In this document: piece after piece, positions 18,086 to 39,301 of the stretch
How the letters are laid out: every line of letters begins with the position of its first letter
Numbering within the stretch: the first letter of the stretch is position 1
Assembly: GCA_947570175.1 (NCBI GenBank)
Contig: CANOTJ010000001.1
Span: 64,282-128,281, forward strand
DNA: 64,000 bases
Source: an uncultured Mycoplasmatota bacterium
Lineage (GTDB): Bacteria; Bacillota_I; Bacilli_A; RF39; UBA660
Direction: 5' to 3'
Notes under the pieces: model-generated
The model's input: the letters and a program-made list of their open reading frames with translations, nothing else
Told to the model about the DNA's origin: nothing
Database searches by the model: none
Position numbers and translations under genes: made by a program

Positions 18086-18201
18086 TAAAAAAACAATCAT
18101 TTGACTTGTTTACTATCAACAATGTGGTTGGATGTTGGTAGAGTAGTTGACTTGTTTTATTTGAAAAACAATATTAAGGTTGGGATGCAACTTTAAAGAG
18201 T

Positions 18202-25100: not shown

Positions 25101-25340
25101 AAAGTTTTAAATAGAAATAATATTGATGAATCAAAGCCAATGTACAAAATCACTTTAACTCCAGCAACAATTAGACAAATAAGAAATTATAATAAAAATC
25201 AAAATGATTATAATAATCCATCATTAGATTGTGCTGAAAATAAAGCCGCTTGTATTAGTAGTTTTTTACCTACAATTCCGATAGAAGGAAAATGCGCTGG
25301 GGCAAATAAAAATAATTTTTATTCGTGCGTTAACTATTAA
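22197..25340 (+). CDS. Large secreted cysteine-rich protein (candidate surface adhesin/pilus-associated protein)
   Basis: 1047 aa. Signal peptide 'GSSVRA|ADE'. Very Cys-rich throughout. Starts 11 nt after the previous gene. Confidence 0.6.
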   Translation: MKKSHFKLFICFFAIIVSILFGSSVRAADEGYKAITNGTAGFGGYDPCSNEKSLVCIYGLVAFRISYYEDTSYIGAVDFYDTGIYKSFSDEKLKPTYNIEKSQSKSLNHNKKGQPVTKFQKIDLGIDFDSSKFHVESAQKKVYSKFLNNLGSKKAAKTDGLARNILHYIYLKSKNQNYVINSDFISDKLKNTSGKFVVEPLFLVRIQKQPDAIAGKGKWTYYIGTATTVAQEVTNSHYFYQCKDSGISSSTCQLGWQTRSNKNHVGRIANSMTLSKNWNGISKVSKLKKKDSGYSMKTVANFNKGYGMAIVYFDYNETVTHGTIQQYCYQLETDDCDSINGDYDMSVKVSGTKTVDDASNHTCLNNQNNDSYSVSEFGKLKEGVGIENNEYCALYCNEDVQFQVPEFGRRKGTLKQNLSSFNYTDEYQIRKTAIYNCQVDFKYYYTTNQQEINNISKVYERDIRPTKAQADLANAITKVRDLRNTTDSSSLGQVCKTVVDDKYGLKECYNKALEQYKASKQIVDDSTIDENAKAIHKEYVANLKSYIDAYEAWTATWERIRESYKNCITGNITKDSFKSSDSDIVVKDTDGNSITLSAQDDGSEEPTGGEGSIISISESCKTSHPDSFLDQIICSYNLSCDRNQDYYPKYRSICVTDKLEELLESRQPMTVTERLKWTGNTNTIVDFNRENPIIGPTNTPGYNTSTSKGQETLASGTLNYCKWDLSKVNKLFTINSQNELSFENKITFTFKGAMAKCLGNTAIIENPKSASVKDCACPPNTKHTKINAYHWLNQLELLSETERQKYMNGLTCTEAISTFCDSNVEPNIDYYEEIVNGEGCSLQDCLQEGNPYEFCSRVACNQYKCTIDIAGKQTTTYIQSAVYREAYLRAKKHGINWNALTKEEANNQLDEIAKEQCQLSQCDNKGDKEPFVYRTVQLHNGNNKTLSFPGLSGTGRDFGSNWSEDLVTKVLNRNNIDESKPMYKITLTPATIRQIRNYNKNQNDYNNPSLDCAENKAACISSFLPTIPIEGKCAGANKNNFYSCVNY

Positions 25341-25358: not shown

Positions 25359-25763
25359 ATGAGAGATTCATTTTGGATTGCGTTAATCATGATGTTGGGT
25401 ATTATTTGTATTGTATTTATCAACTTCTTTCAAATATATACCAATACAGATGAACAAAACTATATGCTTTTAAAAGAAACAACAGAGGCAGCTATGTATG
25501 ATGCTGTTGATATGGATGCTTATAAATTACATGGCCAAATAAGAATTAATCGAGAAAAATTTGTAGAAAATTTTGTTAGACGATTTGCAGAAAGTGTATC
25601 ATTATCCAATACATATGTTATTGAGATATATGATGTGAATGAAATGCCACCGAAGGTGAGTTTAAAGGTTTCATCAAAATTAGGTACTAAAGCCATCAAT
25701 AATGAGGTTTTAGAATTTGATATTGTGAATAGAATAGATGCTATATTAGAAGCAACTGATTAG
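25359..25763 (+). CDS. Small N-terminally anchored protein (possible minor pilin/pseudopilin)
   Basis: 134 aa with a single N-terminal hydrophobic helix. Located immediately upstream of the CpaB-like gene. Confidence 0.3.
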   Translation: MRDSFWIALIMMLGIICIVFINFFQIYTNTDEQNYMLLKETTEAAMYDAVDMDAYKLHGQIRINREKFVENFVRRFAESVSLSNTYVIEIYDVNEMPPKVSLKVSSKLGTKAINNEVLEFDIVNRIDAILEATD

Positions 25764-25778: not shown

Positions 25779-26654
25779 ATGAATAATTTTATAATTTCAT
25801 TGAACAGATTTTTTAAAAACAAAAATACAGTTACTATTTTGGGAGTAATAGCTGTTATATTAATTTTATTCTTTGGTTACCGTTTTCAAATTAATAAAAT
25901 GGTTAGTCCTGTAAAGAATATCCCAATTGCAACTAAGACCATTCAACCAAGAACAGAAATAACAGGAGATATGATTGAATATGTAAACGTCGCACCTGTT
26001 GTATTAGATAAGGGGAATATTATTACCAATTCTGCTGCTATTATTGGTAGATACAGTAATTATAATACTGTAATTCCAAAAGGAAGTTATTTTTATAATG
26101 ATACAGTTATTGATGAAGCAAAACTTCCAGATTCCGCTTTCGTAAATTTAAAAAAAGGAGAAATTCCTTATAACTTCCCAGTTGATATTAATTCAACTTA
26201 TGGAAATTCTATTTTTCCAGAAAACTATATTGATATTTATATGAAAGCTTACAACGAAGAAGGAAAACTAATGGTTGGAAAACTAATTGAAAATGTTAAA
26301 GTTTTAGCAGTAAAAGATTCAACAGGAAAGCATGTGTTTGAAAATACAGAAGAAGATAGACAACCAGCATATTTAATTTTTGGAGTAAAATCAGAAATTA
26401 ACATTTTACTTAGAAAAGCTAGTTATATGAATAACTTTTCTGTAGAATTATTTCCAGTGCCACATGGTGTTGTAGTAAAGGCAGAAGAAGGGGAAACACT
26501 CGTTACATCTGAGACACTTAAAAACTTTATAAATGCAAATACTGTTCCAAATGATGAAATTGAAGATAAAACAGAAGAAACAGAACAGAAAAAAACAACA
26601 AAGAAAAATACATCAAGTACTACTGATGATACCTCATCTTCTACAACTAGATAG
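25779..26654 (+). CDS. CpaB/RcpC-like pilus assembly protein (SAF-domain-like), with Ser/Thr-rich C-terminus
   Basis: N-terminal TM followed by a periplasmic-type domain. Sits directly upstream of the TadA ATPase, as in Tad loci. C-terminal 'TSSTTDDTSSSTTR'. Confidence 0.4.
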   Translation: MNNFIISLNRFFKNKNTVTILGVIAVILILFFGYRFQINKMVSPVKNIPIATKTIQPRTEITGDMIEYVNVAPVVLDKGNIITNSAAIIGRYSNYNTVIPKGSYFYNDTVIDEAKLPDSAFVNLKKGEIPYNFPVDINSTYGNSIFPENYIDIYMKAYNEEGKLMVGKLIENVKVLAVKDSTGKHVFENTEEDRQPAYLIFGVKSEINILLRKASYMNNFSVELFPVPHGVVVKAEEGETLVTSETLKNFINANTVPNDEIEDKTEETEQKKTTKKNTSSTTDDTSSSTTR

Positions 26655-26667
26655 TAAGGTAATTTAA

Positions 26668-28029
26668 TTGAACGATAATTTATTTTCACAAATAGATTTT
26701 GGAGCATTAAAAGAATACTTGGAAAATGATGATATTACTGATATTTCTTACAGTAATAATGGGCAACTATGGATAAAAACTTTATCTAAAGGTTTATTTA
26801 GAGTTGAAAATCCAAATGTTAATAATGCATTTATGGAAAAATTAGCTTTCCAATGCTCTAATGTAATGGGGAAAAGTTTTAATATGGCTCATCCATTCTT
26901 AGATGCAGAAGGTGCAGAGTTACGTCTTAACTTTGTACATGATTCTATTGCTAAAAATGGAATTGCTGTTGTTATTCGTAAAACACCATCAAAAATAAGA
27001 CTGGAAAAAGATAAATTATTAAATGAAAAATATATTGATTTAGATATTCATGATTTCTTAGAACAATGTGTTTTAGGACATTGTAATATCATTGTTTGTG
27101 GAGAAACAGGATCTGGTAAAACAGAATTTGTTAAGTATTTAGCCTCTAAGACAAGGCTTGATGAAAAATTAATTACCATCGAAGATACTTTAGAGCTTCA
27201 TTTAGACCGAATTTTTCCTCATAGGGATATTGTCGCTATGAAAACCAATAACATTGCATCTTATTCAGATGTTTTGGTTACTTGTATGAGACAAAATCCC
27301 AAATGGATATTACTTTCGGAGGTACGTAGTGCGGAGGCTGTTATGGCTGTTAGAAACTCCATTTCTTCTGGACACTATATTTTGTCAACTATTCATGCAG
27401 ATAAAGCCTCCTCTATTCCTAATCGTATGTATAGTTTGTTAGAAACAAACCAAGATATCGATCAATTTTTAAAATCCATTTATCGATATATTCAGATAGG
27501 AGTATATATTAGAGGATTTCAAGATAAAGCTACGAAACATTTTGTACGTGAAATTGCTGAAGTTACAGAATTTTATGTAACCGAAGATAATGAAGCAAAA
27601 TATAATACAATTTATAGAAAATCAACATCTGGAAAAGTAAGTAGAAAAAAACCTTCTAAGTATTTAGTAGCTTACTTAGATGCTCAAGGAGTTACCCTAG
27701 ATGAAAATTTAATTCAAGAGTCTGAAACAATGGTTAATAGAGATTTTAGTGTTTTTCAAAAACAGGGACAATCTACTATCAATCAGCCACAAACAGGGAT
27801 AAATAGAACAGTGAATCCACAGCAAATTAATCGTCCTACAGGTATTAATCCACAACAGGTAGTAAATAGACCACAATCAGTAATTCAAACATCGAATGTG
27901 AATAGAACACAAATAATAAGTCCAGGACAAGCTCCTAATAGACCTGTTTCTAATAGTGTTTATAATTCACAACCAGTGAGTGCAAGTTCAAATAATCAAA
28001 TAGAAAATTTAGAAAGTATATTTGACTAA
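26668..28029 (+). CDS. tadA: Tad/Flp pilus assembly ATPase (TadA/CpaF, VirB11 superfamily) with Q/N/P-rich C-terminal tail
   Basis: Walker A 'CGETGSGKTE'. Walker B / Asp box 'ILLSEVRSAEA'. His box 'STIHAD'. Followed by two GspF-like membrane proteins. Confidence 0.85.
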   Translation: MNDNLFSQIDFGALKEYLENDDITDISYSNNGQLWIKTLSKGLFRVENPNVNNAFMEKLAFQCSNVMGKSFNMAHPFLDAEGAELRLNFVHDSIAKNGIAVVIRKTPSKIRLEKDKLLNEKYIDLDIHDFLEQCVLGHCNIIVCGETGSGKTEFVKYLASKTRLDEKLITIEDTLELHLDRIFPHRDIVAMKTNNIASYSDVLVTCMRQNPKWILLSEVRSAEAVMAVRNSISSGHYILSTIHADKASSIPNRMYSLLETNQDIDQFLKSIYRYIQIGVYIRGFQDKATKHFVREIAEVTEFYVTEDNEAKYNTIYRKSTSGKVSRKKPSKYLVAYLDAQGVTLDENLIQESETMVNRDFSVFQKQGQSTINQPQTGINRTVNPQQINRPTGINPQQVVNRPQSVIQTSNVNRTQIISPGQAPNRPVSNSVYNSQPVSASSNNQIENLESIFD

Positions 28030-28042
28030 AGGAGGGATATAA

Positions 28043-28945
28043 ATGGAATTTGTGATTTTTCTCCTTGCTGCTTTTGTTATCATTTTTATTGTTGCTTATC
28101 GAAATGGAGTAGGTAAGAATATATATCTTGAAGTATCAAAAACAGCTGGTAATATTTATGAAAAATATGCTCCATATTCATTTAAGGAAGTAAGACAGAA
28201 GGTAAAAGATTTGGGACAGGAGTATACAAAAAAACAATACACAATTCAAATTGTTGTATTTGCACTTGGAGCAGCAATTATTACATATTTATATTTTTAT
28301 AATTTAATTATTTCACTTATATATGCAGTGATTGCCGTTGCCTTTATTCCATATTTAACATATTTAAGATGTAAAAGAGTATATAGTGAGTATATTTTTG
28401 AACAAATTCAAGTATATACAACCAATACAATTATGGAATTTGCTACAACACAAAGTTTTGTAAAGTCACTAGAGGGTGTTTATGAATCTGGTGTTTTAGA
28501 AGATCCTGTTAAATCAGATGTGAAAACAATGATTGATCTTGCTTATGAGAATGGTACAATTGAAGATTCTATTTCGTATATGAATGATAAATATGATTTC
28601 TTTATTGTAAGAAATATGCATCAATTGTTCCTACAAATAACCAATGAAGGATCTAAGAACGCAGGGGATGCTCTTGAAAATATGTCATTAGATATCGATA
28701 TGCTTGTTGAATCTGTTTATCAAGATAGAATGAATAGGGCCGATTATCATAAGAAGTTCTTGCAATTCGGTATTATTTTATATTTAATGGTAATGCTAGT
28801 ACAAGTACTTCTTGGCGTAGAATCCTATATCGCTATGTTAGATTCTATTTGGGTTCAAGGTTTACTCCATTTAACAATTATTATTAATACCTTATTTTTG
28901 TTAAATGGCGAAAAATATTATAATGAGAATGTGGGGGCAGAATAA
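28043..28945 (+). CDS. tadB: TadB-like inner-membrane platform protein (T2SS-F/GspF-like)
   Basis: 300 aa. N-terminal TM, a central soluble domain and two C-terminal TM segments. Adjacent to the TadA ATPase. Confidence 0.6.
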   Translation: MEFVIFLLAAFVIIFIVAYRNGVGKNIYLEVSKTAGNIYEKYAPYSFKEVRQKVKDLGQEYTKKQYTIQIVVFALGAAIITYLYFYNLIISLIYAVIAVAFIPYLTYLRCKRVYSEYIFEQIQVYTTNTIMEFATTQSFVKSLEGVYESGVLEDPVKSDVKTMIDLAYENGTIEDSISYMNDKYDFFIVRNMHQLFLQITNEGSKNAGDALENMSLDIDMLVESVYQDRMNRADYHKKFLQFGIILYLMVMLVQVLLGVESYIAMLDSIWVQGLLHLTIIINTLFLLNGEKYYNENVGAE

Positions 28946-29736
28946 TGGAATTTTTATTAATTGCAGTAATTGTTTTATTTGTATTACAGTATACAAAAAG
29001 AATAGATTCTAAAAAATTTATTTCAGATATCGAACCATATTTCTCCTTTTTGATGGAGGATGATTATAAATTCCTTCTATCAGTGCGTTATGGTAGTGAA
29101 GAAGAATTAGATGTAAACTTACTATTTAATAAGCGTGTATCTACAGCATTACTTACAATGGTTTGTTTAATTTTTCTATTTTTAATTACAAAATTTAGTT
29201 TTATTAGTTTATTAATTGTACTAATTATTGGATTTTTCGTTTTTAAATTTCCATATATGCGATTAAATATGTATTATAAAGCAAATCTCAATAGAATTAA
29301 TCAAATGCTACCCTATTATTTAAAGGGATTAGAAATTTTAATCCAACATTATACAGTTCCAGTTGCCCTTAGAAAATCTATTGACAGTGCCCCAGAAGTA
29401 TTTCGACCTGGTCTAAAAAAATTATGTCAAAAGATAGAAGAAGGAGATTCCTCTGTCCAACCTTACATGGATTTTGCCCATGATTATCCAGTACGTGATT
29501 CTATGCGCATGATGAGATTGTTATATAGATTAGGTCTAGGTTCACAAGAGAATAAACAGGAACAATTAATTATGTTTGCAAAAAATGTATCGACGTTACA
29601 AAATAAAGCACGTGAACAACGTTATGCCAATCGATTAGAGAAAATGGAAAGAAAGACAATGATGATGTTAGTTTCTACAGGTCTTTGTATTTTGGCATTA
29701 TTATTTATATCAATGCTAAGTGTTATTAACATATAA
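28945..29736 (+). CDS. tadC: TadC-like inner-membrane platform protein
   Basis: 263 aa with the same topology as the preceding gene. Start overlaps the upstream stop. Confidence 0.6.
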   Translation: MEFLLIAVIVLFVLQYTKRIDSKKFISDIEPYFSFLMEDDYKFLLSVRYGSEEELDVNLLFNKRVSTALLTMVCLIFLFLITKFSFISLLIVLIIGFFVFKFPYMRLNMYYKANLNRINQMLPYYLKGLEILIQHYTVPVALRKSIDSAPEVFRPGLKKLCQKIEEGDSSVQPYMDFAHDYPVRDSMRMMRLLYRLGLGSQENKQEQLIMFAKNVSTLQNKAREQRYANRLEKMERKTMMMLVSTGLCILALLFISMLSVINI

Positions 29737-32090
29737 TGAAATCGAAAATAAAATGGTTATTAGCATCTTTAATTGTACCAATTCTAATTATACTAGTAGT
29801 ATTATTTAGAAGAGACGCGAGTATTGATTCTATATTTGTTTCGGATTTAGGAGCACAATATCAATACTTATTTGAATGGTTTAAAGATGTATTAGATGGG
29901 AAAGAAATTTTAACTTATTCATTTTCAAAAGGATTAGGAGGGGATATGGTACATACTTATTGGTATTATCTATCTTCTCCATTTAATCTTTTTCTTTTTT
30001 TTATTCCAAAAGTTGGCATTAAATATTTTATATTCATTTTAATTTTATTAAAAATAGGTTTATGTGGATTTACGATGTATTTTTATTTGGATCATAAATC
30101 TACAAAATTAAAAAACTATGAAAAATTCTTACTTGCGATTTCTTATGCGCTTATGAATTATAATCTTGTTTATTATTTTAATATCATATGGTTAGATATT
30201 GTATATCTTGCCCCTATTGTACTTATGGGATTAGATCGGATTTTTCAGGATAAAAAACCAACACTATATATAGTTTCGTTAGTAATTGCGATTATTAGTA
30301 ACTATTATATGGCATATATGTTATGTTTTTTCCTTTGTTTTTATTTTATTTATCAATGTATTCATTTAAAACAAAAGGATAAAATAAAAATATGGGTCAA
30401 AAAATTTTTGCTTTATTCATTGCTATCTGGATTACTTAGTGCTATTGTTTTAGTTCCTGTTATTTTTTCTATACCAGATATATTTCGTTTAAAATCCTTA
30501 CCAAATTATAATTTTATCAAAAAATCTTTAAACCTTTTATATAATTTTCAAATTCATACACAACATGATAGATATGATTATACCATGCCATATGTGCATT
30601 CTACTTACTTTGTAGTGATTTTAATTTTTAATTGCTTATTCAATAATAAACGAAGTCGGAAGCTATTTTTAATTATCTTATTACTATTTTTATCATTTTT
30701 CCTTATAAATGATAAAATTTGGTATGGTTTTTCTTCTCCAGTTTTATTTTTATATCGCTATAGCTTCCTTTTTGTACTAATACTGATAGTATTTATTTCG
30801 GATTTTTATAATCCACAAATTGTTAAAAAAAATAAAATTTTTATGATTTCTTTGATTTATTTAATTGTCGGTATTATCACAACATATCTCCTAAAAAAGC
30901 AATTCTCATTATATTTTATATTGACTAATTTTTATTTGCTTTTATCATTTCTTCTTATGAATAATTTCGTTATCCGATTTAAGAAATATATTTTCGTTTT
31001 ATTTTTCTTAACAATTATTGAGTTATATATATCAGGTAATGCTTTGTTTCATACACTCAGCCCATCACAAATGAACGAATCATTGAGGGTCCATAAAAAT
31101 TATAATACAATTTCACAAATAGAAGACTCTTATTATCGTATTAATTCTCGATCTTATTTTTCTATAGGGAAATCAACTTCATCATTCTTTCTGTCTACTA
31201 ATGACAAGAATATTTTTAAATTCAATCATACAGCTAATTCTGCTATATCTTCTTCTATGTATAGTTTTTATGACAATGATATTTTAGTAAGATTATTAGG
31301 TTATCAATATCAAGAGGATTGTGATGAAAAAAATAATTGTAAAATTTCTAAACTATCTTCTACAGGAATTGGCTACATGATTGATAATAATTCTATGAAA
31401 AAATCCAAAAATTTTATAGAATATAATTACAATTTTGGTAAAGTTTTATCTAAAAATGCAGATCTTCTATATGAGAATTACAATTATAAAAGAAAAAATA
31501 AGAATGAATTTATAATAGAAGGAAATAAGAAACAAAGAGTGTTTGTGGATATTTCCTATAATGTAAATGATGATGTAGACGTTTATTTGAATGGTAAAAA
31601 AATATATACTGACTATTATCATGATAGCAATTTGTTGAGATTACAATTAAAAAAAGGGAAGAATATTTTAAAAATTAAAAGTGATTATAGCATGAAATCC
31701 GATATTCAGGTTTACGAGCTAAAAGATGAAAATTTAGATAGCTTGGTAAAAGATCTTCAATCAGAGACTTTATCTATTGAGAAGATGCAGAAGGGGCACT
31801 TAAGAGGAAATATAAATGTTCAATCGAATCGAAAAACATTACTGATTACTATCCCTTATCAAAAGGGATGGAATATTTATGTGGATGGTAAAAAAACAAA
31901 TTATTATGAAGTTTATGATACCTTTATTGGACTTGATTTAAAAAAAGGAAAACATCAAATTGTAATGAGATATGAAAATAAACCTTTGAAAATTGGAATT
32001 TTAATGTCTATATTAACTTTAGTAATAACGATTTTTATGCTCTTCATGTATAATAAGCGTAAAGTATTTAAAAATATTAAAAAAAAATAA
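29736..32090 (+). CDS. YfhO-family polytopic membrane protein (GT-C-type glycosyltransferase-like)
   Basis: 784 aa. About 12+ TM helices in the N-terminal 430 aa and a large extracytoplasmic C-domain. Start overlaps the tadC stop. Confidence 0.55.
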   Translation: MKSKIKWLLASLIVPILIILVVLFRRDASIDSIFVSDLGAQYQYLFEWFKDVLDGKEILTYSFSKGLGGDMVHTYWYYLSSPFNLFLFFIPKVGIKYFIFILILLKIGLCGFTMYFYLDHKSTKLKNYEKFLLAISYALMNYNLVYYFNIIWLDIVYLAPIVLMGLDRIFQDKKPTLYIVSLVIAIISNYYMAYMLCFFLCFYFIYQCIHLKQKDKIKIWVKKFLLYSLLSGLLSAIVLVPVIFSIPDIFRLKSLPNYNFIKKSLNLLYNFQIHTQHDRYDYTMPYVHSTYFVVILIFNCLFNNKRSRKLFLIILLLFLSFFLINDKIWYGFSSPVLFLYRYSFLFVLILIVFISDFYNPQIVKKNKIFMISLIYLIVGIITTYLLKKQFSLYFILTNFYLLLSFLLMNNFVIRFKKYIFVLFFLTIIELYISGNALFHTLSPSQMNESLRVHKNYNTISQIEDSYYRINSRSYFSIGKSTSSFFLSTNDKNIFKFNHTANSAISSSMYSFYDNDILVRLLGYQYQEDCDEKNNCKISKLSSTGIGYMIDNNSMKKSKNFIEYNYNFGKVLSKNADLLYENYNYKRKNKNEFIIEGNKKQRVFVDISYNVNDDVDVYLNGKKIYTDYYHDSNLLRLQLKKGKNILKIKSDYSMKSDIQVYELKDENLDSLVKDLQSETLSIEKMQKGHLRGNINVQSNRKTLLITIPYQKGWNIYVDGKKTNYYEVYDTFIGLDLKKGKHQIVMRYENKPLKIGILMSILTLVITIFMLFMYNKRKVFKNIKKK

Positions 32091-32107
32091 AAAAAATTTT
32101 TGTTTTG

Positions 32108-32116
32108 TGGTATACT
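32108..32116 (+). promoter_or_regulatory. Extended -10 promoter (TGgTATACT) for the pilin genes
   Basis: 'tggtatact' lies about 28 nt upstream of GTG 32145. RBS AGGAGG at 32132-32137. Confidence 0.3.
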
Positions 32117-32144
32117 AAATATATAAGGTAAAGGAGGTATATTG

Positions 32145-32318
32145 GTGAAAGAAGCGACAGGAGAAGCAAGTATGACTGTTGTTGTTATTGTTGTAATCGG
32201 AGTTGTTGCAGCAGCAGCGGCAATTATAATACCAAGTTTAATGCACAATATTAGTGATAAGGCAGATAGTGTAAACAATATTTCAATAGGATATGTAGAA
32301 GCGGGAGGTGATTATTAG
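32145..32318 (+). CDS. flp: Flp/Fap-type (type IVc) pilin-like protein, copy 1 (57 aa, GTG start; not in ORF track)
   Basis: RBS AGGAGG 7 nt upstream. 'VKEATGEAS' leader, then a ~22-residue Ala/Ile/Val hydrophobic helix, then a short polar tail. The paralog downstream differs mostly at synonymous sites in the leader. Confidence 0.55.
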   Translation: MKEATGEASMTVVVIVVIGVVAAAAAIIIPSLMHNISDKADSVNNISIGYVEAGGDY

Positions 32319-32494
32319 TGAAAGAAGCAACAGGTGAAGCAAGTCAAACAGTTATTGTTATTATTGTTGTTGCAATTATCGCAGCAGCGGCAGCTATTAT
32401 TGTGCCAATGTTAACAAGTCAAGTAAAAGAAGGGGCAGATAACATGTCAGCTAAAGCTAGCCCAACGGATCCTTTTACACCTAAAGAACAATAG
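32318..32494 (+). CDS. flp: Flp/Fap-type pilin-like protein, copy 2 (58 aa, GTG start overlapping upstream stop as TAGTG)
   Basis: RBS GGGAGGTG 7 nt upstream. Identical leader 'VKEATGEAS', then a hydrophobic helix. Divergent C-terminal tail 'SAKASPTDPFTPKEQ'. Confidence 0.55.
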   Translation: MKEATGEASQTVIVIIVVAIIAAAAAIIVPMLTSQVKEGADNMSAKASPTDPFTPKEQ

Positions 32495-32508: not shown

Positions 32509-32916
32509 ATGAAACAGTCAATAGGAACCGCCCAGGTAATGACATTCGTGATTATATTTGTTGTCATTACTTTTGTATTTATTATGGCAACACTGCTTTA
32601 TTTAAAGGCTTTTAAGGTTAACAGTATGATTGCTGGTACGTTGGAAAAATATGAAGGATCTAATGCATTTTTTCAAGATGAAATAAAACAAAAATTAAAT
32701 GCCTTAGGTTATGCAGCGGATACAGGTTTTGAATGTCCAAATGGATATGGTAGAGTTGATGAAGGGCATAAGGCTTGTATACGATATAAAAAAACTACAG
32801 GAAATTATTATCGTTATGATATTTTAACTTATATTGAATTTGGCCCACTTTTGGGTGTGAATTTTTCAATTCCAATTCGAACAGAATCAGAAAAAATTTA
32901 TAATTTTAGTAGTTAA
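32509..32916 (+). CDS. TadE/TadF-like pseudopilin
   Basis: 135 aa. N-terminal 'MKQSIGTAQVMTFVIIFVV...' hydrophobic pilin-like helix. Sits immediately after the pilins. Confidence 0.5.
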   Translation: MKQSIGTAQVMTFVIIFVVITFVFIMATLLYLKAFKVNSMIAGTLEKYEGSNAFFQDEIKQKLNALGYAADTGFECPNGYGRVDEGHKACIRYKKTTGNYYRYDILTYIEFGPLLGVNFSIPIRTESEKIYNFSS

Positions 32917-32931
32917 GAGGATGGTGAGTAA

Positions 32932-33363
32932 ATGAGAGAGAGTATAGGTGCATCATTTGTAGTGTATGCTATCGTTATTTTCGTTGCCATCTTTTCTTTA
33001 TTTTTTATTATGGGTTTTAATTATACAAAGGCCTTTAAGATGAAAAATAGAATTATAGATATTATTGAAGAAAATGAGTGTTATGAAGGTGGAGATTGTC
33101 AATCTCAAGAACAGATTTCTAAAGCATTAGCAGATGCTGGATATCGTATGAAAGGTGGACAACCAGCGTGTAATCAGTATATGAAGGGAAGAACTGCAGA
33201 AATTATAGACAATAATGCTAATCACTACTGTGTTTATAAAGTAACAACTTCTCGTGGTAATTATTATGGTGCCGTAACTTTTATGTATTTTGAAATTCCA
33301 CTTTTTAATATTCATAAGGAATATCCAGTTTATGGAGAAACAAAAGTAATGGGTAAATTTTAA
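32932..33363 (+). CDS. TadE/TadF-like pseudopilin (paralog)
   Basis: 143 aa. N-terminal 'MRESIGASFVVYAIVIFVAIF' parallels the preceding gene. Contains several Cys. Confidence 0.5.
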   Translation: MRESIGASFVVYAIVIFVAIFSLFFIMGFNYTKAFKMKNRIIDIIEENECYEGGDCQSQEQISKALADAGYRMKGGQPACNQYMKGRTAEIIDNNANHYCVYKVTTSRGNYYGAVTFMYFEIPLFNIHKEYPVYGETKVMGKF

Positions 33364-33378
33364 GGGAGATGGCTAGGA

Positions 33379-34407
33379 ATGAATGTTATTATTTCTAATA
33401 AATATACATCAATGTTAAATAGTTTAGATATTGATGTAATCAAGAAAATCGAAGGTGAATTTGATGCTGACGATATTATATCGCAATTTAAAAATTTCTT
33501 TTTTCAAAGAATGATTTTAGATATCACAGCGATTAAAAATTATAAAAATATTCAGACATTGCAAAAGTTATCCATTTCTTTAGATATGGATAAAGTAATA
33601 TTATTGTTAGATGATACAGATGAAAGCAATAGTAATTTATATTTATCCAAATTAATATCCATGGGAATTTACAACTTTACTAAGAATATTGAAGGAATTA
33701 TGTATTTATACAATAATCCAAATTCTTATCGTGACGTTGCCCATATACAACAATTGGATACCATAGGTGTAGAACAACCACAACCTCAATCTAGCAATGT
33801 GATTGTTGAAAACTATAATAGTACTGTTCATACAACTAGAATTATTGGGGTGAAAAATGTTACCAAACAATCTGGTGCTACCACACTAACTTATATGCTT
33901 CGAAATCAACTCAAACAAAATTACTCTGTGGTAGCAATTGAGGTGAATAAATCGGACTTTAAGTATTTTAATGATAAAACCTTAATTACAACAACAGCAA
34001 CAGAAATTGGTAATGTGATTGCAAAACATAATGATAAAGATGTAATTGTAATTGATGTTAATGATAGCAAACAAGCAGAAGGACTATGTACAGATGTACT
34101 TTATCTGATTGAACCTTCTATTATTAAATTAAATCGTTTAATGTTTGTAGATCGTTCTGGTAGTGCATTAAAAGCCTTAAAAAATAAAAAAGTGATTTTA
34201 AATCAAAGTTTATTAAATTCAAAGGATGTTTTAGATTTTGAATATGAAGCGGGTTTTAAAGTATTTTATAATATGCCACCTTTAGACGAGAGGGAAAAAA
34301 GTATTCATGCATTAAATAAATTATTAGTTATGCTTGGATTTGGAAAACAATCCGATGAACAAACACAAGAGAAAAAAAATAAAATGTTAGGATTATTTGG
34401 ATTCTAA
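33379..34407 (+). CDS. TadZ/CpaE-like protein (ParA/MinD-fold with degenerate Walker A; possible N-terminal receiver-like domain)
   Basis: 'IIGVKNVTKQSGATTLTYMLRNQL' aligns to the MinD/ParA P-loop position but lacks GKT. Upstream 'KVILLLDDTDE' is receiver-like. Confidence 0.4.
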   Translation: MNVIISNKYTSMLNSLDIDVIKKIEGEFDADDIISQFKNFFFQRMILDITAIKNYKNIQTLQKLSISLDMDKVILLLDDTDESNSNLYLSKLISMGIYNFTKNIEGIMYLYNNPNSYRDVAHIQQLDTIGVEQPQPQSSNVIVENYNSTVHTTRIIGVKNVTKQSGATTLTYMLRNQLKQNYSVVAIEVNKSDFKYFNDKTLITTTATEIGNVIAKHNDKDVIVIDVNDSKQAEGLCTDVLYLIEPSIIKLNRLMFVDRSGSALKALKNKKVILNQSLLNSKDVLDFEYEAGFKVFYNMPPLDEREKSIHALNKLLVMLGFGKQSDEQTQEKKNKMLGLFGF

Positions 34408-34502: not shown

Positions 34503-34871
34503 ATGTTAAATGTTTTGGCATGCCATTTAGGTGCGAGTATGGACCCTATTATACCAAAGTTTATAACTGCTGCTATAAGAGTTTTTCAAATTGCAATTCC
34601 TATTATTTTGGTAGTACTAGGAATGATTGATTTAGGGAAAGCTGTTACTAGTAATGATGAAAAGCAAATGAAAGAAGCTCAAAAAACATTAATTAAACGT
34701 GTTATCTATGCAATATTAATATTCTTTATTGTGGCTTTAGTTAAGTTTGTATTTGGGCTATTAGCAGACGCTAGTAAAGATGGCGAAGGTCAAAGTAGTA
34801 ATAAATCTGGAAGTGCATCTGCTTGTATAAATTGCTTTTTGAATTATGAAGACGGTTGCCTTAGCAAGTAA
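34503..34871 (+). CDS. VirB2/TrbC-like small membrane protein (T4SS pilin-like)
   Basis: 122 aa. Two hydrophobic helices 'IAIPIILVVLGMIDLGKAV' and 'VIYAILIFFIVALVKFVFGLL' separated by a charged loop. Paralogous to ORF 36110. Confidence 0.35.
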   Translation: MLNVLACHLGASMDPIIPKFITAAIRVFQIAIPIILVVLGMIDLGKAVTSNDEKQMKEAQKTLIKRVIYAILIFFIVALVKFVFGLLADASKDGEGQSSNKSGSASACINCFLNYEDGCLSK

Positions 34872-34946
34872 GATTTTAGAACAACTAAAATCTTTTTTTG
34901 TTGTTTTTATTATGTATATTTGTTATAATCAAAGTAGGTGATTTGA

Positions 34947-36104
34947 ATGAATTTAAAAGATATTACAGCTATTTTTAAAGATCCGAGTAAAAAGTTATAT
35001 TTATATACCTTTGTGTTGGTAGTGCTTTTTGTTTTTATTTTGATAATTGTTTTATTTGTTAGTGTTTTTGGAAACAAGAATTTGAGTTACGAACAAATGG
35101 AGCATCAAATGGTTAGTAGTGCGAAAGACTATGCCACTAGTAAAAAAATACTGATTAAAAAAGATTCGTTTAGAAAAGTAATTAAAATAAGTGCCTTGAT
35201 TGAAAATGAATATATGAAAGAATTAAAAAAATACAATAAAAAATATGAAACTTGTGATGGAAATGTTACGATTACTTATAACGGTAAAAAGTTTTTATAT
35301 ACTCCTTATTTTGATTGTGGAAAAACATATGAAACAAAATATTTGAATGATGAAATTAGGAAGTCAAAGTTAAATGATAATAAAGATGGATTATATCCAG
35401 TAGATGATTATTATGTTTATAAAGGTGAAAATCCTAATAACTATATTAGATTTGCAAATGAATTATGGAGAATTGTAAAAGTGGAAAGTGATGGAACCAT
35501 TAAAATTATTCAAATAAACAATGATTTTGATTCTATCGTATTTGATGATCGTTATAATTCTGCTTGTCCAGAAGATGAGTATAACTGTAATGGATTTAAT
35601 AATTTTGAAACTAGTCGCTTAAAAGATCAAATGTTAGATATATTTAATAATGGTATTGAAGTGGATGGTGGAAAATTTAGTTTTTCTCAATTCGAAAAGT
35701 CTATTATAACCTATCAGCACCTCTGTGTTGGAGCAACAAATGAAAATTTAAAAATAGATGATGGTTATCCTGAGTGTCAAGTAAAAACCGAGAATGAATA
35801 TCCATTTGATTTTATAAAATTGAATGAATATATTATGGCTTCATTGGATTCTACATGTAAAACGATAAAAGATATGCAATGTACAAATTATAATTATTTA
35901 TCCAAAAGGGCTTATTATTGGACAATAACTCCAAGTGATAAAAATACTTACAAAGTTTATTATATTTCTCAATTGCCACGAGCAATTTCTGTAAATGAAG
36001 AATTTAACTATAAATTTGTATTAAATTTATCTTCCAATACTTTATATAAAAGTGGAACAGGAACAAAAGAAGATCCTTATCTTATTAAGAACGTCATAGA
36101 ATAG
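34947..36104 (+). CDS. N-terminally anchored extracytoplasmic protein (hypothetical T4SS-associated)
   Basis: 385 aa. Single N-terminal TM 'LYLYTFVLVVLFVFILIIVLFVSVF'. Cys-containing ectodomain. Confidence 0.4.
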   Translation: MNLKDITAIFKDPSKKLYLYTFVLVVLFVFILIIVLFVSVFGNKNLSYEQMEHQMVSSAKDYATSKKILIKKDSFRKVIKISALIENEYMKELKKYNKKYETCDGNVTITYNGKKFLYTPYFDCGKTYETKYLNDEIRKSKLNDNKDGLYPVDDYYVYKGENPNNYIRFANELWRIVKVESDGTIKIIQINNDFDSIVFDDRYNSACPEDEYNCNGFNNFETSRLKDQMLDIFNNGIEVDGGKFSFSQFEKSIITYQHLCVGATNENLKIDDGYPECQVKTENEYPFDFIKLNEYIMASLDSTCKTIKDMQCTNYNYLSKRAYYWTITPSDKNTYKVYYISQLPRAISVNEEFNYKFVLNLSSNTLYKSGTGTKEDPYLIKNVIE

Positions 36105-36109
36105 GAGAG

Positions 36110-36502
36110 ATGAAAATGAATTTTATAAAAAAGAATCAAAAAAAGATATTTTTGAGTCTATTATTTATTACAATGTTGTCCTCTTCTCCTGTTTTTGCGG
36201 CATCTAGATGCCAAGCCTTTGGTCCAAAAACTGAAAATTTAATACGGCTTGCTTTAAACGCTATTAGAATTGGAGCTCCAATTTTAGTAATCTTCTTAGG
36301 TGCAATCGATTTTATGAAAATTCTAATTTCTGGAGAAGAAAAAACATATAAAGAATCATTTAAAACATTTTTGAAAAGACTAGGAGCAGTAGCCGCTTTG
36401 ATTTTTGTTCCTTATATCATTGTCTTTGCATTAAAAATAAGTGGTATTTTAAATGAATATCAAATTGCAGATAGTAGTATCTTTTGTTTCTTTGATTTTT
36501 AG
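36110..36502 (+). CDS. VirB2/TrbC-like small membrane protein with signal peptide
   Basis: Signal peptide 'SSSPVFA|AS'. Two hydrophobic helices 'IGAPILVIFLGAIDFMKIL' and 'LGAVAALIFVPYIIVFALKI' that align with ORF 34503. Confidence 0.4.
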   Translation: MKMNFIKKNQKKIFLSLLFITMLSSSPVFAASRCQAFGPKTENLIRLALNAIRIGAPILVIFLGAIDFMKILISGEEKTYKESFKTFLKRLGAVAALIFVPYIIVFALKISGILNEYQIADSSIFCFFDF

Positions 36503-36503
36503 T

Positions 36504-36528
36504 AAAAGGTGAAAACCTTTTTTTGTTT
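36504..36528 (+). terminator. Rho-independent terminator (partial/attenuating) after VirB2-like gene
   Basis: 'aaaaggt-gaaa-acctttt' followed by a T-run. Confidence 0.45.
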
Positions 36529-36554
36529 ACATTTTTTTAAATACCACTTAAAAA

Positions 36555-36586
36555 TCATTTTAAAATGATTCTTGGTATGGTATAAT
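36555..36586 (+). promoter_or_regulatory. Promoter with extended -10 (TGgTATAAT) and a perfect 16-bp palindrome ATCATTTTAAAATGAT at the -35 position
   Basis: Palindrome at 36555-36570. 'tggtataat' at 36578-36586. About 38 nt upstream of ATG 36624 (RBS 'gggaggt'). Confidence 0.4.
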
Positions 36587-36623
36587 ATATAAAGAGTAAT
36601 CTAGTTTATACGGGAGGTCATAT

Positions 36624-38966
36624 ATGTTTAATATATTGGATTCTGAAGGATTTTTTAATGATATGATTCGTGATATATTTGCAGCTATTAATAAAGGAAT
36701 TTATTCTTTGATAGCGGTCACTTATAATTTAATAGAAGATTTATCAAAAATGAGTATTTTATCTTATGGAAACATGCAAGAGTTTGCGAAAAGAATTTAT
36801 GCCCTTTTGGGCTTATTTATGCTTTTTAAAGTATCTTTTTCCATTATTACATATATTGTAGACCCAAATAAAATGACTGATAAAGCGGCTGGTTTTAGTG
36901 CTATTATTAAAAACACAGTTATTACTCTTATTTTGATTTTAATTGTTCCGACTGGTTTCTCCTTATTGTATGAAGCACAAGATGCAATTTTATCAGAAAA
37001 TGTTATTCCTAAATTAATCTTAGGGACTGATAAAGATATTTCTACTACTGGAAATACGAAAGATGAATTAAAAATTTATTTTTCTCCAGATTATTGCGGA
37101 GATGTACCGATATATGCGAAAGATACAGGACATTATATATCACTACTTACCTTTAGGGCCTTTTTTCAACCTAATCCTAAATATGATATTGAATCCTTTG
37201 CGGATTCTATAGGTAGTAAAATTTATACTAGATATTGTTTTCCAAGATCAACAGAATATTTACCAGATGATGTTAATCTTGATCTTGGCTCGATAAAATG
37301 GGACCTTGTTAAAGGTGCGATTTCTACAGCAATTTTTCCAGCATTTGCACCACTTAAAGAGGCATTAAAAGGAGCTAAAAAACTATATAATTTATCAAAA
37401 ATGCCAGATGATTTGAACGAATTAAATAATGATATTGTGGTTTATGATTACTTGAATTATTCCCAACTTTATAATGCATCTTCCGCTAAAGCTGATCATG
37501 ATGCAATTGATTTCTTTACACTTAGTTATTATGACTATGATATAGATTTTAATTATTTTATTGCATTGTTAGTTGGAATTGTTGTAGAGTTAGTATTAAT
37601 TGGAATTTGTATGGATGTTGCAGTTCGATCTGTTAAACTGACATTTTTACAATTAATGGCTCCAATTCCGATTGTTTCTTATATTGATCCGAAATCTGGA
37701 AAAGATGGAATGTTTAAAAGATGGTATCAAGAAGTTTTTAAAACTTGGGGGAGCTTGTTTATCAAATTAATTGCTGTATTCTTTGGAGTATATTTAATCC
37801 AACAATTAGATACACTATATTTACTCAGTGGAAGTGCAACAGATATTAAATCAGGAAAACTTTGGATTATGCTATTTCTATTAATTGGTATTTTGATATT
37901 TATGAAGCAGCTTCCAACTTTATTAGAGAGCTTAATCCCAGGAATGAAGAATGCAGGTTCATTTACTTTAAATCCATTTAAAAAATTTACCAATGAAGCA
38001 ATAGGTGGAAAACAAATTTTAGGTGCAGCTGGAGCTGTTGGTGCTGGTGCTTTAGCATTTACTGGAGCTGGAATTGCCCATGGTATTGCAAGGCATCAAT
38101 TTAAGAAAGGATTAAACAAAACTCAGGGAGAAATATCAAATTTGAGAGGAAAAAGACTTGCTAATGCGAATCAAATTCGATCGAATAATTCTCAAATAAG
38201 ATCTCTTAATGCTCAAAAGAGTATATTAGAAGCTAAAAAGGCTGCTACGCCTGTTGCTTCGCGTCAATGGTTTGATCTTGGAAATGATATCAAGAATCTA
38301 AATGCTCAAAAAGCAACATTACAGGCTGATAACAAAAATCTAAGAGCAGAAAGTAAAGAGTTACGAGGCAATATGAAAGCTAAGGTAGATTCTCTAGAGG
38401 CAAAAATTGAAAAATCTAAATTAACGAAACACCCAATTGCAGGTGCTATGGGAAGTATCTCTAGAGGAGCTTTGTATGGAATGAGAGAAGGATATAAAAA
38501 TCCTCGTAATTTCATTAAAAATGCAATTACCGCTACTACAAAAGCTAGTGAAAATCGTAATTATAGAGATAAATATGCTCTTGGGGATAGGGTAAAGGAC
38601 CGTCTTACAGATATTGCGGCAATTAAAAATACATCTGGAACAAGTAGTAAAGTTAAGGAAAGTATTAAGGATGCACAAAATAGCTTAGCAGATGTAACAA
38701 ATAATATCGCTCGTCTAAATAGAACAATTGCCGATTTATCTACTAGAATGGGTGAAGCTGAATTTAACAAGGCAGTTATTACTCAAGCAAATGGCCGTAT
38801 GATGTATAATGATAGTTATCGCCCACCTGCAGGATATAGTGGACCATCTCTTGATGATTTAAAAGCTGTTTTGGATAATTATAACAATCAAAGAGATAGT
38901 CAAATTCAAATTGAAAAACAAATTAAAGAATATGAAAATATTATTAAATCGGGTAAAAAGGAGTGA
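36624..38966 (+). CDS. VirB6/TrbL-like polytopic membrane protein with long C-terminal coiled-coil tail
   Basis: 780 aa. Multiple TM helices across residues ~60-500. C-terminal ~280 aa of heptad-like Asn/Lys/Ala-rich sequence ('LNAQKATLQADNKNLRAESKELRGNMKAKV'). Confidence 0.5.
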   Translation: MFNILDSEGFFNDMIRDIFAAINKGIYSLIAVTYNLIEDLSKMSILSYGNMQEFAKRIYALLGLFMLFKVSFSIITYIVDPNKMTDKAAGFSAIIKNTVITLILILIVPTGFSLLYEAQDAILSENVIPKLILGTDKDISTTGNTKDELKIYFSPDYCGDVPIYAKDTGHYISLLTFRAFFQPNPKYDIESFADSIGSKIYTRYCFPRSTEYLPDDVNLDLGSIKWDLVKGAISTAIFPAFAPLKEALKGAKKLYNLSKMPDDLNELNNDIVVYDYLNYSQLYNASSAKADHDAIDFFTLSYYDYDIDFNYFIALLVGIVVELVLIGICMDVAVRSVKLTFLQLMAPIPIVSYIDPKSGKDGMFKRWYQEVFKTWGSLFIKLIAVFFGVYLIQQLDTLYLLSGSATDIKSGKLWIMLFLLIGILIFMKQLPTLLESLIPGMKNAGSFTLNPFKKFTNEAIGGKQILGAAGAVGAGALAFTGAGIAHGIARHQFKKGLNKTQGEISNLRGKRLANANQIRSNNSQIRSLNAQKSILEAKKAATPVASRQWFDLGNDIKNLNAQKATLQADNKNLRAESKELRGNMKAKVDSLEAKIEKSKLTKHPIAGAMGSISRGALYGMREGYKNPRNFIKNAITATTKASENRNYRDKYALGDRVKDRLTDIAAIKNTSGTSSKVKESIKDAQNSLADVTNNIARLNRTIADLSTRMGEAEFNKAVITQANGRMMYNDSYRPPAGYSGPSLDDLKAVLDNYNNQRDSQIQIEKQIKEYENIIKSGKKE

Positions 38967-38971
38967 TATAA

Positions 38972-39301
38972 ATGAATGGTAATTTTCTAATTCCAGCAAA
39001 CTCAAAAAAATCATTAAAAATTTTAGGGATATTTTATCCCTTTGATTTGATTTTGTTTGCTTCGGGAGTTGGGGTATCCATAATCTTGATGATGGTGTTG
39101 CAAGTATCTGATTTTAAAATTGCAATTCTGTCAATTCTTCCAGGGTGTGTTTGTGGATTATTAGTATTCCCTGTTCCAAATTACCATAATGTCTTGACAG
39201 CCATTAAGGAAATGTGGACTTTTATTAGTCAAAGACAAAGATTTGTATGGAAAGGTTGGTGTGTATTAGATGAAATCAAAAAACTCGAAAAACAGAAGTA
39301 A
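38972..39301 (+). CDS. VirB3-like small membrane protein
   Basis: 109 aa with two TM helices. Immediately upstream of and overlapping the VirB4-like gene, the usual VirB3 position. Confidence 0.4.
   Translation: MNGNFLIPANSKKSLKILGIFYPFDLILFASGVGVSIILMMVLQVSDFKIAILSILPGCVCGLLVFPVPNYHNVLTAIKEMWTFISQRQRFVWKGWCVLDEIKKLEKQK

Follow-up and report, generated by a model that had tools for sequence, protein, structure and literature searches.

Two small, overlapping open reading frames (ORFs) occupy positions 32145 to 32494 of the window, the 64,000-nucleotide stretch of contig CANOTJ010000001.1 from an uncultured Mycoplasmatota bacterium that was analysed here. These ORFs probably encode the major prepilins of a strongly diverged Tad-type pilus, a type IV filament, that is coupled to a Gram-positive type IV secretion system (T4SS). 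This reading draws on the conservation of the two genes, on a leader that their products have in common with larger proteins encoded next to them, on the homology of neighboring genes to the Tad component CpaB and to the Tad ATPase, and on the linkage of the entire module to T4SS genes. The coordinates of all features are collected in Table 1.

Tandem genes for probable pilins and their common leader

The two genes overlap by one base, such that the TAG stop codon of the first and the GTG start codon of the second are read as TAGTG. An in-frame TTG at 32142 lies one codon 5' of the first GTG. Residues 1-9 are the same in both products (M/V-KEATGEAS), and their codons vary at gcg/gca and gga/ggt alone, which are synonymous differences. 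The leader is followed by about 22 Ala, Ile and Val residues, which are expected to form a hydrophobic helix, and then by tails that are unlike one another. An earlier note on this interval had described the tandem ORFs, their GTG starts, the TAGTG junction, the ribosome binding sites (RBSs), the identical N-termini and the helix, and every one of these sequence-level statements is correct.

Comparative sequence data establish both ORFs as genuine protein-coding genes under purifying selection. Public gene callers predict both, with products of 57 and 58 amino acids (aa), and the exact 58-aa protein is found on more than 20 public contigs (NCBI/ENA/Logan). Two tandem pilin genes are kept at the same place in locus L005, where the flanking genes are 78-87% identical to those of the window, and in locus L010. 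These orthologues carry ATG at the codon that is GTG in the window, which fixes the start codons used here. ATG is also the start codon of 120 of the 135 small ORFs matched by pattern, a set that includes some false positives. Over codons 2-34, dN/dS (Nei-Gojobori) is 0.13-0.32 between the window and its orthologues (0.13-0.18 for pilin gene 1), 0.05-0.06 when the two orthologous loci are compared with each other, and 0.29 for one window copy against the other. The selection on the plus frame that had been argued from synonymous codon differences is therefore borne out by dN/dS values of 0.05-0.32, by orthologous tandem genes and by public gene calls.

The family to which these proteins belong is large. 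At E<=0.001, a profile built from 11 members retrieves 832 clusters (50% identity) from a set of 1.84 billion representatives; with few exceptions these are 48-107 aa long and align from the first residue. Relatives occur in at least 178 species in a scan of one genome per species, and almost all of the carriers are metagenome-assembled genomes (MAGs) of uncultured gut 'Bacilli', 'Tenericutes' or Erysipelotrichaceae.

An alignment of 97 unique small pilins from 91 loci related to the window defines the N-terminal consensus M-K-E-A-T-G-E-[L/A]-[N/S]-M-T. Met1, Glu3, Gly6, Glu7 and Thr11 are invariant in these sequences, and Lys2, Ala4 and Thr5 are nearly so. In a wider library of pilins, residue 5 can also be Ser, Ala, Met or Pro, and Gly-Glu is retained. 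The leader is followed by 20-25 uncharged residues and then usually by Pro and/or Trp. Beyond this point the tails vary across the family and may be acidic and Trp-rich, Ser-rich or Cys-rich.

The same kind of N-terminus is found on larger proteins of the same operon. Every locus encodes, directly 3' of the pilins, one or two proteins of 125-190 aa that carry a hydrophobic helix after a leader. One hundred unique larger neighbors begin M[KR][EDQ][AS][IVF]G, with Gly at the sixth position in 91 and Ser in the remaining 9. The window encodes two such minor pilin-like proteins; the first is found by BLAST in 16 of the 91 loci, and the second is detected in 87. The profiles of major and minor pilins align in register over residues 1-27 (hhalign P=8e-5). 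Because the six-residue leaders align in this way, a single cleavage site common to small and large proteins is suggested. Thus, a Gly that precedes a helix of about 20 residues is common to major and minor subunits, as in prepilin-type leaders, which are defined as class III signal peptides (PMC3244431).

From this conservation, the leader is most probably the six residues MKEATG, cut after Gly6 and before the invariant Glu7. The earlier note had proposed a nine-residue leader, VKEATGEAS, but Gly6 and Glu7 are invariant in the 97 sequences and conservation extends as far as Thr11, so that six residues are likelier. It had also set the downstream proteins apart by their N-termini and called them TadE-like. 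Their leaders, MKQSIG and MRESIG, are instead in register with MKEATG, and TadE (PF07811) is not among the 25 commonest families for 52 minor pilins scanned against Pfam at E<=10. Comparison of the minor pilins with real TadE gives hhalign P=0.49, whereas the family of minor pilin-like protein 2 is related to DUF4320 and to the p40 family of the Gram-positive plasmid pLS20 (P=3e-6). Major and minor subunits differ immediately after the proposed cleavage site. The Glu at +1 (Glu7) is invariant in the small pilins and absent from the minor ones, and position +5 is not Glu. In lacking the Glu at +1, the minor pilins resemble the tip pseudopilins of other systems, which have no Glu at +5.

The pilin genes may also be transcribed on their own. 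The 54-nucleotide gap between the stop codon of the preceding YfhO-family gene and pilin gene 1 contains the extended -10 element TGgTATACT. A TGnTATAAT element occupies the equivalent site in L005 and L010, and the element is thus conserved in three loci including the window. A consensus scan of the region for promoters and terminators gave no more sites than shuffled sequences; it does not list the element at 32108-32116, because this element has no -35 hexamer. The conserved extended -10 upstream of the first pilin gene suggests separate, strong expression of pilin, as is usual for major pilins.

Tad-like components and secretion genes around the probable pilin genes

Between 74 and 87 of the 91 loci, which come from more than 80 species, keep the core genes of the module linked to one another (10 kb on each side). 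One of these genes encodes a 291-aa protein whose family profile aligns with CpaB of a Bacillus thuringiensis plasmid (hhalign Prob 99.8%, P=1e-27). The reference CpaB itself matches RcpC (2e-12) and SAF. Alignment of the 291-aa family with proteobacterial CpaB gives P=7e-4 over 188 columns. CpaB is specific to Tad systems, and these profile alignments identify the 291-aa protein as a homologue of this component.

The B. thuringiensis locus (L106; plasmid ppl185_NB125, record 113015-120002) encodes, in order, CpaB, an AAA_31 ATPase, CpaF, a 310-aa and a 288-aa protein (Bt310 and Bt288), three tandem 67-aa pilins and a 181-aa A24-like protein. The gene order of the window module matches this arrangement, which reads cpaB-tadZ-cpaF-tadB-tadC-three pilins-peptidase. 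In the PGAP annotation of L106, only CpaB, the AAA ATPase and CpaF are named; the T2SSF-like pair, the pilins and the A24-like protein are hypothetical.

The 453-aa ATPase of the window is likewise homologous to a Tad component. It matches HP0525 (VirB11; 7e-16), FlaI (8e-15) and CpaF (1e-14) in the PDB, and its family profile aligns with p37 of the pLS20 family (P=7e-35), with B. thuringiensis CpaF (5.5e-26) and with CpaF (6.6e-19). Because it is equally close to VirB11, FlaI and CpaF, the ATPase alone cannot settle whether the system is of the Tad type.

The two polytopic membrane proteins encoded next, of 300 and 263 aa, are likely to form a TadB/TadC-type platform. The 300-aa family aligns with Bt310 (Prob 62%, P=7e-5, 249 columns). 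A TadB+TadC profile built from eight proteobacterial loci aligns with Bt310 (P=8e-8) and Bt288 (P=1.5e-9). It also aligns with the 263-aa family over the T2SSF domain (Prob 60%, P=8.6e-5, 136 columns), and reversed-profile controls for this protein give P>=0.12. The 263-aa family also aligns with the p39 family of Gram-positive plasmids (Prob 95%, P=4e-8). The T2SSF signal emerged only with the eight-locus profile and the B. thuringiensis bridge locus. There was no hhalign signal when the family profiles were compared with single TadB or TadC sequences or with each other, and no signal when the family hidden Markov models (HMMs) were run by hmmsearch against TadB and TadC with block-shuffled controls.

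A YfhO-family glycosyltransferase gene sits between the platform and pilin genes. The protein matches NCBIfam PgfM1 and PgfM2 at 1e-45 and 1e-42, far under their cutoffs. Homologues longer than 500 aa occur in only 8 of the 91 loci (L001-L005, L010, L011 and L064), which correspond to the clade of the window. Pilin tails rich in Ser, Thr and Asn are seen in the closest of these (L005, L010, L011 and the window type), and those of other clades are Trp-rich or Cys-rich. One might guess that the YfhO enzyme O-glycosylates the pilins of this clade.

Two further genes border the module. The 342-aa protein at the position of TadZ is conserved in 84 of the 91 loci and has no Pfam match; its alignment with CpaE/TadZ-like proteins over the P-loop region reaches only P=0.0025-0.012 by hhalign. 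The 1047-aa secreted protein on the other side occupies the position of the Tie/thioester or isopeptide adhesins of pLS20-type plasmids. It appears to evolve fast, since BLAST finds it in only 32 of the 91 loci.

The pilus module is part of a Gram-positive T4SS cluster, a context that the earlier note did not mention. VirB4, VirD4, a VirB6/TrbL-like protein and a wall hydrolase are encoded in one cluster with the p36-p40 block, as in systems of the pLS20/pAW63 type. T4SS genes are linked to the pilus module in 49-83 of the 91 loci (10 kb on each side). Among the ORFs scanned from 16.7 to 47 kb of the window, none has a relaxase or integrase domain. The element may extend beyond the window, or the system could be non-conjugative. 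The cluster (19865-46526) is flanked by housekeeping genes, with an rlmD-like gene at 15328-16554 on one side and genes for a rhodanese, an RmuC-like protein and pyruvate kinase after 46.5 kb on the other. Contigs as long as 1.46 Mb, and one closed MAG chromosome of 1.31 Mb, carry homologous clusters. The cluster may represent a domesticated, non-conjugative T4SS of the kind that has been proposed for Patescibacteria.

Some proteins of this cluster have features of their own. T4SS_pilin proteins are present in one to several copies (in the window, and at about 13.3-15.7 kb in L024, L025 and L053), and some are fused to large extracellular domains, for example the 458- and 491-aa proteins of L071. 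An internal 'MKEAQSK' at the start of their C-terminal helix resembles the pilin leader. When the leader pattern was widened to allow Gly, Ser or Ala, the 'MKEAQSK...' peptides that it retrieved were internal to T4SS_pilin-like ORFs rather than genes and were removed. The VirD4 protein ends in a low-complexity extension of about 200 residues outside its Pfam domains, which is Pro/Gly-rich and then consists of Glu/Lys/Gln-rich repeats.

Table 1. Features of the window that bear on the pilin genes. Numbers after family names are E-values unless given in bits.
Feature	Position	Strand	Description
Cys-rich secreted protein, candidate adhesin	22197..25340	+	1047 aa; directly 5' of module; no Pfam domain
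DUF5411 protein	25359..25763	+	134 aa; one N-terminal transmembrane segment; Pfam DUF5411 6.8e-52; counterpart of pLS20 p36
CpaB/RcpC homologue	25779..26654	+	291 aa; Pfam RcpC 2.8e-5, under cutoff
CpaF/TadA/VirB11-family ATPase	26668..28029	+	453 aa; Pfam T2SSE 2.6e-26
TadB-like platform candidate	28043..28945	+	300 aa; polytopic membrane protein
TadC-like platform candidate	28945..29736	+	263 aa; polytopic; T2SSF-like domain at about residues 98-238
YfhO-family GT-C glycosyltransferase	29736..32090	+	784 aa; accessory; Pfam YfhO 9.6e-106
Extended -10 promoter element	32108..32116	+	TGgTATACT; read from sequence, putative function
RBS of pilin gene 1	32132..32137	+	AGGAGG; 7 nucleotides 5' of GTG
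Pilin gene 1	32145..32318	+	57 aa; GTG start; TAG stop 32316-32318; MKEATG|EASMTVVVIVVIGVVAAAAAIIIPSLMHNISDKADSVNNISIGYVEAGGDY
RBS of pilin gene 2	32303..32310	+	GGGAGGTG; within 3' end of gene 1; 7 nucleotides 5' of GTG
Pilin gene 2	32318..32494	+	58 aa; GTG start 32318-32320; MKEATG|EASQTVIVIIVVAIIAAAAAIIVPMLTSQVKEGADNMSAKASPTDPFTPKEQ
Minor pilin-like protein 1	32509..32916	+	135 aa; MKQSIG|TAQVMTFVIIFVV
Minor pilin-like protein 2	32932..33363	+	143 aa; MRESIG|ASFVVYAIVIFVA; related to DUF4320/pLS20 p40
Conserved cytoplasmic protein	33379..34407	+	342 aa; TadZ position, identity unproven
Gram-positive T4SS genes	34503..46526	+	From Pfam scans
T4SS_pilin-like (VirB2-like) proteins	34503-34871, 36110-36502	+	Two proteins
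TrbL/VirB6-like protein	36624-38966	+	TrbL_4 1.9e-6
VirB3-like protein	38972-39301	+
TraC-like protein	39270-39824	+
VirB4	39824-41608	+	AAA_10/P-loop_TraG 1e-11
SpoIID-domain hydrolase	41620-43521	+	SpoIID 1e-10
VirD4 coupling protein	44316-46526	+	T4SS-DNA_transf 1.5e-57
Canonical prepilin	53414-54328 (ORF from 53363)		304 aa; MKKQG|FTLIEM; N_methyl 26.1 bits, above cutoff

Plasmids of other Gram-positive bacteria carry a similar block. The best plasmid matches of the ATPase are 'CpaF/VirB11 family' proteins (about 30% identity, E 1e-33 to 1e-39) of pLS20-type Bacillus plasmids, pXO2/pAW63, Enterococcus pZB18-like plasmids, and Listeria and Paraclostridium plasmids. In all of these blocks the ATPase is encoded together with an adhesin of the thioester or isopeptide type, a protein some 125 aa long, two membrane proteins (about 270 and 245 aa) and a DUF4320 protein of 120 aa. 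Several also encode tiny single-helix proteins, often in tandem (for example, 2 x 47 aa), and VirD4, VirB6 and VirB4 lie further on wherever the stretch compared extends that far. Profile comparison relates the window to this block at the DUF5411 protein and p36 (Prob 94%, P=1e-7), the 263-aa protein and p39 (P=4e-8), the minor pilin and p40 (P=3e-6), and the 300-aa protein and p38 (P=1e-3).

The tiny plasmid proteins are 47-63 aa long (L092:13927-14459, L102:7196-7599 and L105:7074-7220; MLDQNADRMYWVIGAVLVVG..., MLDQNTDRASWGMLALVL...) and are often duplicated. In pLS20-type plasmids, Paraclostridium plasmids and pXO2 they directly follow the DUF4320 gene, occupying the place that the pilins have in the window. 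These proteins lack both a Pfam match and an obvious Gly cleavage site. In the pLS20 family, p37 is considered a putative VirB11, and p36 and p38-41 are listed as proteins of unknown function (PMC8557374).

Elsewhere in the window, an AbiEi-like gene is followed by two ORFs for AbiEii nucleotidyltransferases (17261-18085 and 18202-18822; the whole spans 16722-18822). These two ORFs align with the N- and C-terminal portions of the Pfam model, as if a toxin gene had been duplicated or split. They are followed by a gene for a GNAT acetyltransferase (19095-19670).

Competing explanations and a proposed filament model

A number of results weigh against a Tad-type filament. Neither window pilin matches the Pfam family Flp_Fap (PF04964) at E<=1, and Flp_Fap is likewise missing from the 25 commonest families when the 97 members are scanned at E<=10. 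The Glu and Tyr of the Flp processing site are absent, with Thr-Val at +5/+6 after Gly6 in their place. The commonest Pfam match, which speaks for a pilin, is to archaeal Pilin_N (PF07790), in 32 of 97 sequences (best 0.0022, aligned from Gly6), at 16-18 bits that all lie under the 25.2-bit cutoff. The best PDB profile matches likewise favor type IV pilins (PilE1 at 0.043, geopilin and PilA). Both sets of matches, however, are sub-threshold and possibly compositional in part, in the case of the PDB matches because ATP synthase b subunits appear in the same list. No Pfam or NCBIfam model matches the pilins, the minor pilins or the platform candidates at a significant level. For these candidates, of 300 and 263 aa, there is no Pfam match, including T2SSF, and no PDB sequence match. 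Their AlphaFold2 models are poor (pLDDT 61 and 65) and give no significant Foldseek match, and their T2SSF homology has P near 1e-4 where about 60 pairwise profile comparisons were run. In the PDB, VirB11 (HP0525) and CpaF match the ATPase equally well. Finally, no A24 prepilin peptidase is encoded in the window or in the 91 loci, as searched with GxGDxK, with the looser [GAS]D.K and by phmmer with a Bacillus TadV-like protein.

The search for a TadV/A24 enzyme that the earlier note recommended thus yields no dedicated peptidase nearby, and processing would have to occur in trans. The window encodes a canonical 304-aa prepilin (Table 1) that is isolated from any visible pilus assembly genes, and a 968-aa N_methyl protein with Listeria-Bacteroides repeats lies just 5' of the pilus module in L040 (L040:1568-4474). 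Since the window and the L040 flank encode canonical prepilins, a peptidase of the PilD/ComC type is expected elsewhere in these genomes. Such peptidases need mainly Gly at -1, and leaders of 5-6 residues are typical of Firmicutes Com pilins. Judged from these genes, processing of the window prepilins in trans by a host peptidase is plausible.

The small proteins could instead be unprocessed bitopic membrane subunits of the T4SS, serving in its structure, assembly or exclusion, with the ATPase a true VirB11 and no filament formed. The ATPase is equidistant from VirB11 and CpaF and has its nearest plasmid relatives annotated as VirB11-like (pLS20/pAW63), no locus contains a peptidase gene, the cluster already includes T4SS_pilin/VirB2-like proteins, and the literature holds that Gram-positive T4SSs make no pili. 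However, the module contains a bona fide homologue of CpaB/RcpC (P=1e-27), a Tad-specific part for which we know of no role in the known T4SSs. A six-residue N-terminus that ends in Gly and is in register with larger proteins of the same operon would be hard to explain without common processing or recognition. In addition, pilins show just this combination of tandem duplicates, an invariant N-terminus and hypervariable tails, and the gene order is that of a Tad locus. Weak matches of the pilins to the entry-exclusion family TrbK (NCBIfam, 0.005-0.07) would suit this alternative but are far under the cutoff, and the exclusion version of it was rejected. On balance, we regard subunits of this kind as unlikely.

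It is very unlikely that the two proteins are ordinary Flp/Fap pilins processed by TadV at a G/XXXXEY-type site. They resemble Flp in their length of 57-58 aa, short leader, Gly, hydrophobic helix, short tail, tandem copies and Tad-like neighbors. The Flp_Fap HMM search proposed in the earlier note nevertheless gave no match, whereas Flp of Pseudosulfitobacter plasmid P6, the positive control, scores 57.2 bits (1.5e-15). The pilin family aligns with this Flp at hhalign P=0.14 only. The Flp site requires Glu at +5 and Tyr at +6 after the Gly (PMC3244431), whereas +5 is Thr in 97 of 97 family members and +6 is Val, Leu or Ile, in agreement with the previous remark that the canonical site is lacking. 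There is also no TadV in the window or the 91 loci. The HMM and motif tests together refute membership in Flp/Fap, and the description 'Flp-like' holds for small pilin-type proteins in a Tad-like neighborhood but not for members of that family. A negative Flp_Fap result appears to be normal for Tad-like loci of Firmicutes, since the B. thuringiensis plasmid pilins also escape this model.

The motif EATGE followed by a hydrophobic stretch could also be taken for a sortase sorting signal, which would make the pilins sortase substrates. There are weak matches of the pilins to LPXTG anchor models (TIGR01167 at 0.15 and Gram_pos_anchor at 0.4), and 33 related loci (L012, L016 and 31 others; for example L016:2203-3015) encode a sortase-like protein of about 261-270 aa (Pfam Sortase 1.8e-4, under cutoff). 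However, EATGE is found at residues 3-7, where cleavage would free just a pentapeptide, and no N-terminal secretion signal precedes it. The locus of the window and those of its closest relatives contain no sortase gene, and where the sortase-like gene occurs it adjoins not the pilins but a large surface protein of about 900-960 aa encoded 5' of the pilus module. The sorting-signal reading was rejected as implausible. The proposal that the plus-strand ORFs are not genes and that the minus-strand ORF 31955-32278, the longest in the interval at 107 aa, is the real one is refuted by the comparative data, as the earlier note had anticipated. This ORF runs across the intergenic RBS and into the 3' end of the oppositely oriented YfhO gene, and in L005 it is split into 41- and 47-aa pieces. 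In all three compared loci, antisense frames contain 3-14 stops across the pilin genes, and the plus frame has dN/dS well below 1.

A diverged Tad-type pilus would operate as follows. The one hydrophobic helix of each 57- or 58-residue precursor would insert it in the membrane and leave the short N-terminus on the cytoplasmic side. The leader MKEATG would be removed after Gly6 by an A24-type peptidase encoded elsewhere, leaving the invariant Glu at +1. The ATPase, acting on the TadB/TadC-like platform (28043-29736), would then lift the mature subunits from the membrane, and these would stack through their hydrophobic helices into a thin filament. The larger proteins with the same leader (32509-33363) could serve as minor or priming pilins, and the CpaB/RcpC homologue and the DUF5411 protein could make up the envelope-spanning part. 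The short, variable C-terminal tails would be exposed and, in this clade, may be glycosylated by the adjacent YfhO enzyme. We infer that such a filament would most plausibly make or stabilize cell-cell contact, or span the wall, for the adjoining T4SS.

The plasmid block raises a broader possibility, which we put forward tentatively and think somewhat doubtful as it stands. A large class of Gram-positive T4SSs might build a Tad-derived type IV filament from a pilin family that has not been recognized previously. By the homology of p36-p41, this class would span the chromosomal clusters of gut Bacilli and plasmids such as pLS20, pAW63/pXO2 and pHTbeta-like elements, and the tandem 47-aa proteins of pLS20 would be the positional counterparts of the MKEATG|E... 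pilins. If so, the so-called VirB11 of these systems is a pilus motor, and the filament would be the first case of a pilus that belongs to a monoderm T4SS. The finding of partners in liquid, or passage across a thick wall, would then have an explanation. A concrete function would be assigned to a block that anthrax, Bacillus, Enterococcus and Listeria plasmids share with hundreds of uncultured gut species, and the 832 clusters would constitute a new pilin family with an unusual mature N-terminus (Glu at +1, no Glu at +5). If this is wrong, the family is still a large, unannotated one of conserved small membrane proteins tied to T4SSs.

Such a filament would depart from current descriptions. 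Gram-positive elements are stated to form no conjugative pili (PMC8557374), their conjugation systems are described as relying on adhesins and lacking pili (PMC8557374, PMC12102498, PMC10221548), and recent T4SS literature describes Gram-positive systems without pilins. In the literature we found no description of a Tad or type IV pilus tied to Gram-positive T4SSs, of pLS20 pili or of DUF5411, nor any account of this block as a pilus module.

Comparison with known filament and secretion systems

The window pilins share with the Flp proteins of Tad (type IVc) pili, such as Aggregatibacter Flp1 and Caulobacter PilA, a length of about 50-60 aa, a short leader that ends in Gly, a helix of about 20 residues, a short variable tail and an arrangement as tandem paralogues. 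The neighbors also resemble those of Flp/Tad loci, with CpaB/RcpC, a CpaF-type ATPase, a likely TadB/TadC pair and, carrying a common leader, larger pseudopilins. Unlike Flp, the window pilins have neither a Flp_Fap match nor Glu at +5 and Tyr at +6; their Glu at +1 and Thr at +5 are invariant and their leader probably has only six residues. Unlike in Tad loci, no TadV is encoded in the locus, the pseudopilins do not match TadE, and the module is fused to a T4SS cluster.

The B. thuringiensis plasmid locus L106 has the same gene order, with related CpaB (P=1e-27), ATPase (P=5.5e-26) and TadB-like protein (P=7e-5). Its small tandem pilins likewise lack a Flp_Fap match and Glu-Tyr. However, L106 has its own candidate peptidase, an A24-like protein (Pfam Peptidase_A24 just 0.33), and no T4SS genes in the 9 kb examined. 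At about 21 residues, the leader of its pilins is long, and these pilins align with the window family at just P=0.002 over 11 columns by hhalign.

Archaeal type IV pilins (PF07790) also have a short leader that is cut after Gly or Ala right before the helix, with no Glu at +5, and theirs is the sole pilin model touched by the family, below its cutoff. In contrast to these pilins, the window family occurs in bacterial hosts and has Thr, Ser or Ala at -2 rather than Lys or Arg.

In Gram-negative bacteria, a T4SS can be encoded together with a type IV filament that assists conjugation. The thin pilus of IncI R64/TP114 and the filament of PAPI-1 are used in or are essential for mating-pair formation (PMC12857230, PMC9045228). 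These filaments differ from the one proposed here in that they are of type IVb, with classical prepilins, a peptidase of their own and diderm hosts, and the monoderm case is not described there.

The 'VirB11 blocks' of Gram-positive plasmids (pLS20 genes 36-41; pAW63/pXO2, pZB18 and Listeria) are also among the closest counterparts. These have the same order of adhesin, p36, p37, p38/p39 and p40, followed by tandem single-helix proteins of 47-63 aa and then by VirD4, VirB6 and VirB4. In contrast to the window, the plasmid blocks compared do not encode CpaB, and their small proteins (MLDQNADRMYWVIG...) have neither a MKEATG leader nor an obvious Gly site. The plasmids also carry relaxases and are proven to be conjugative, whereas neither a relaxase nor an integrase was found in the part of the window scanned. 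This comparison suggests that the window contains a less eroded version of the plasmid block. Because it keeps a clear CpaB homologue and pilin-type subunits with a common leader, the window version points to a filament derived from Tad.

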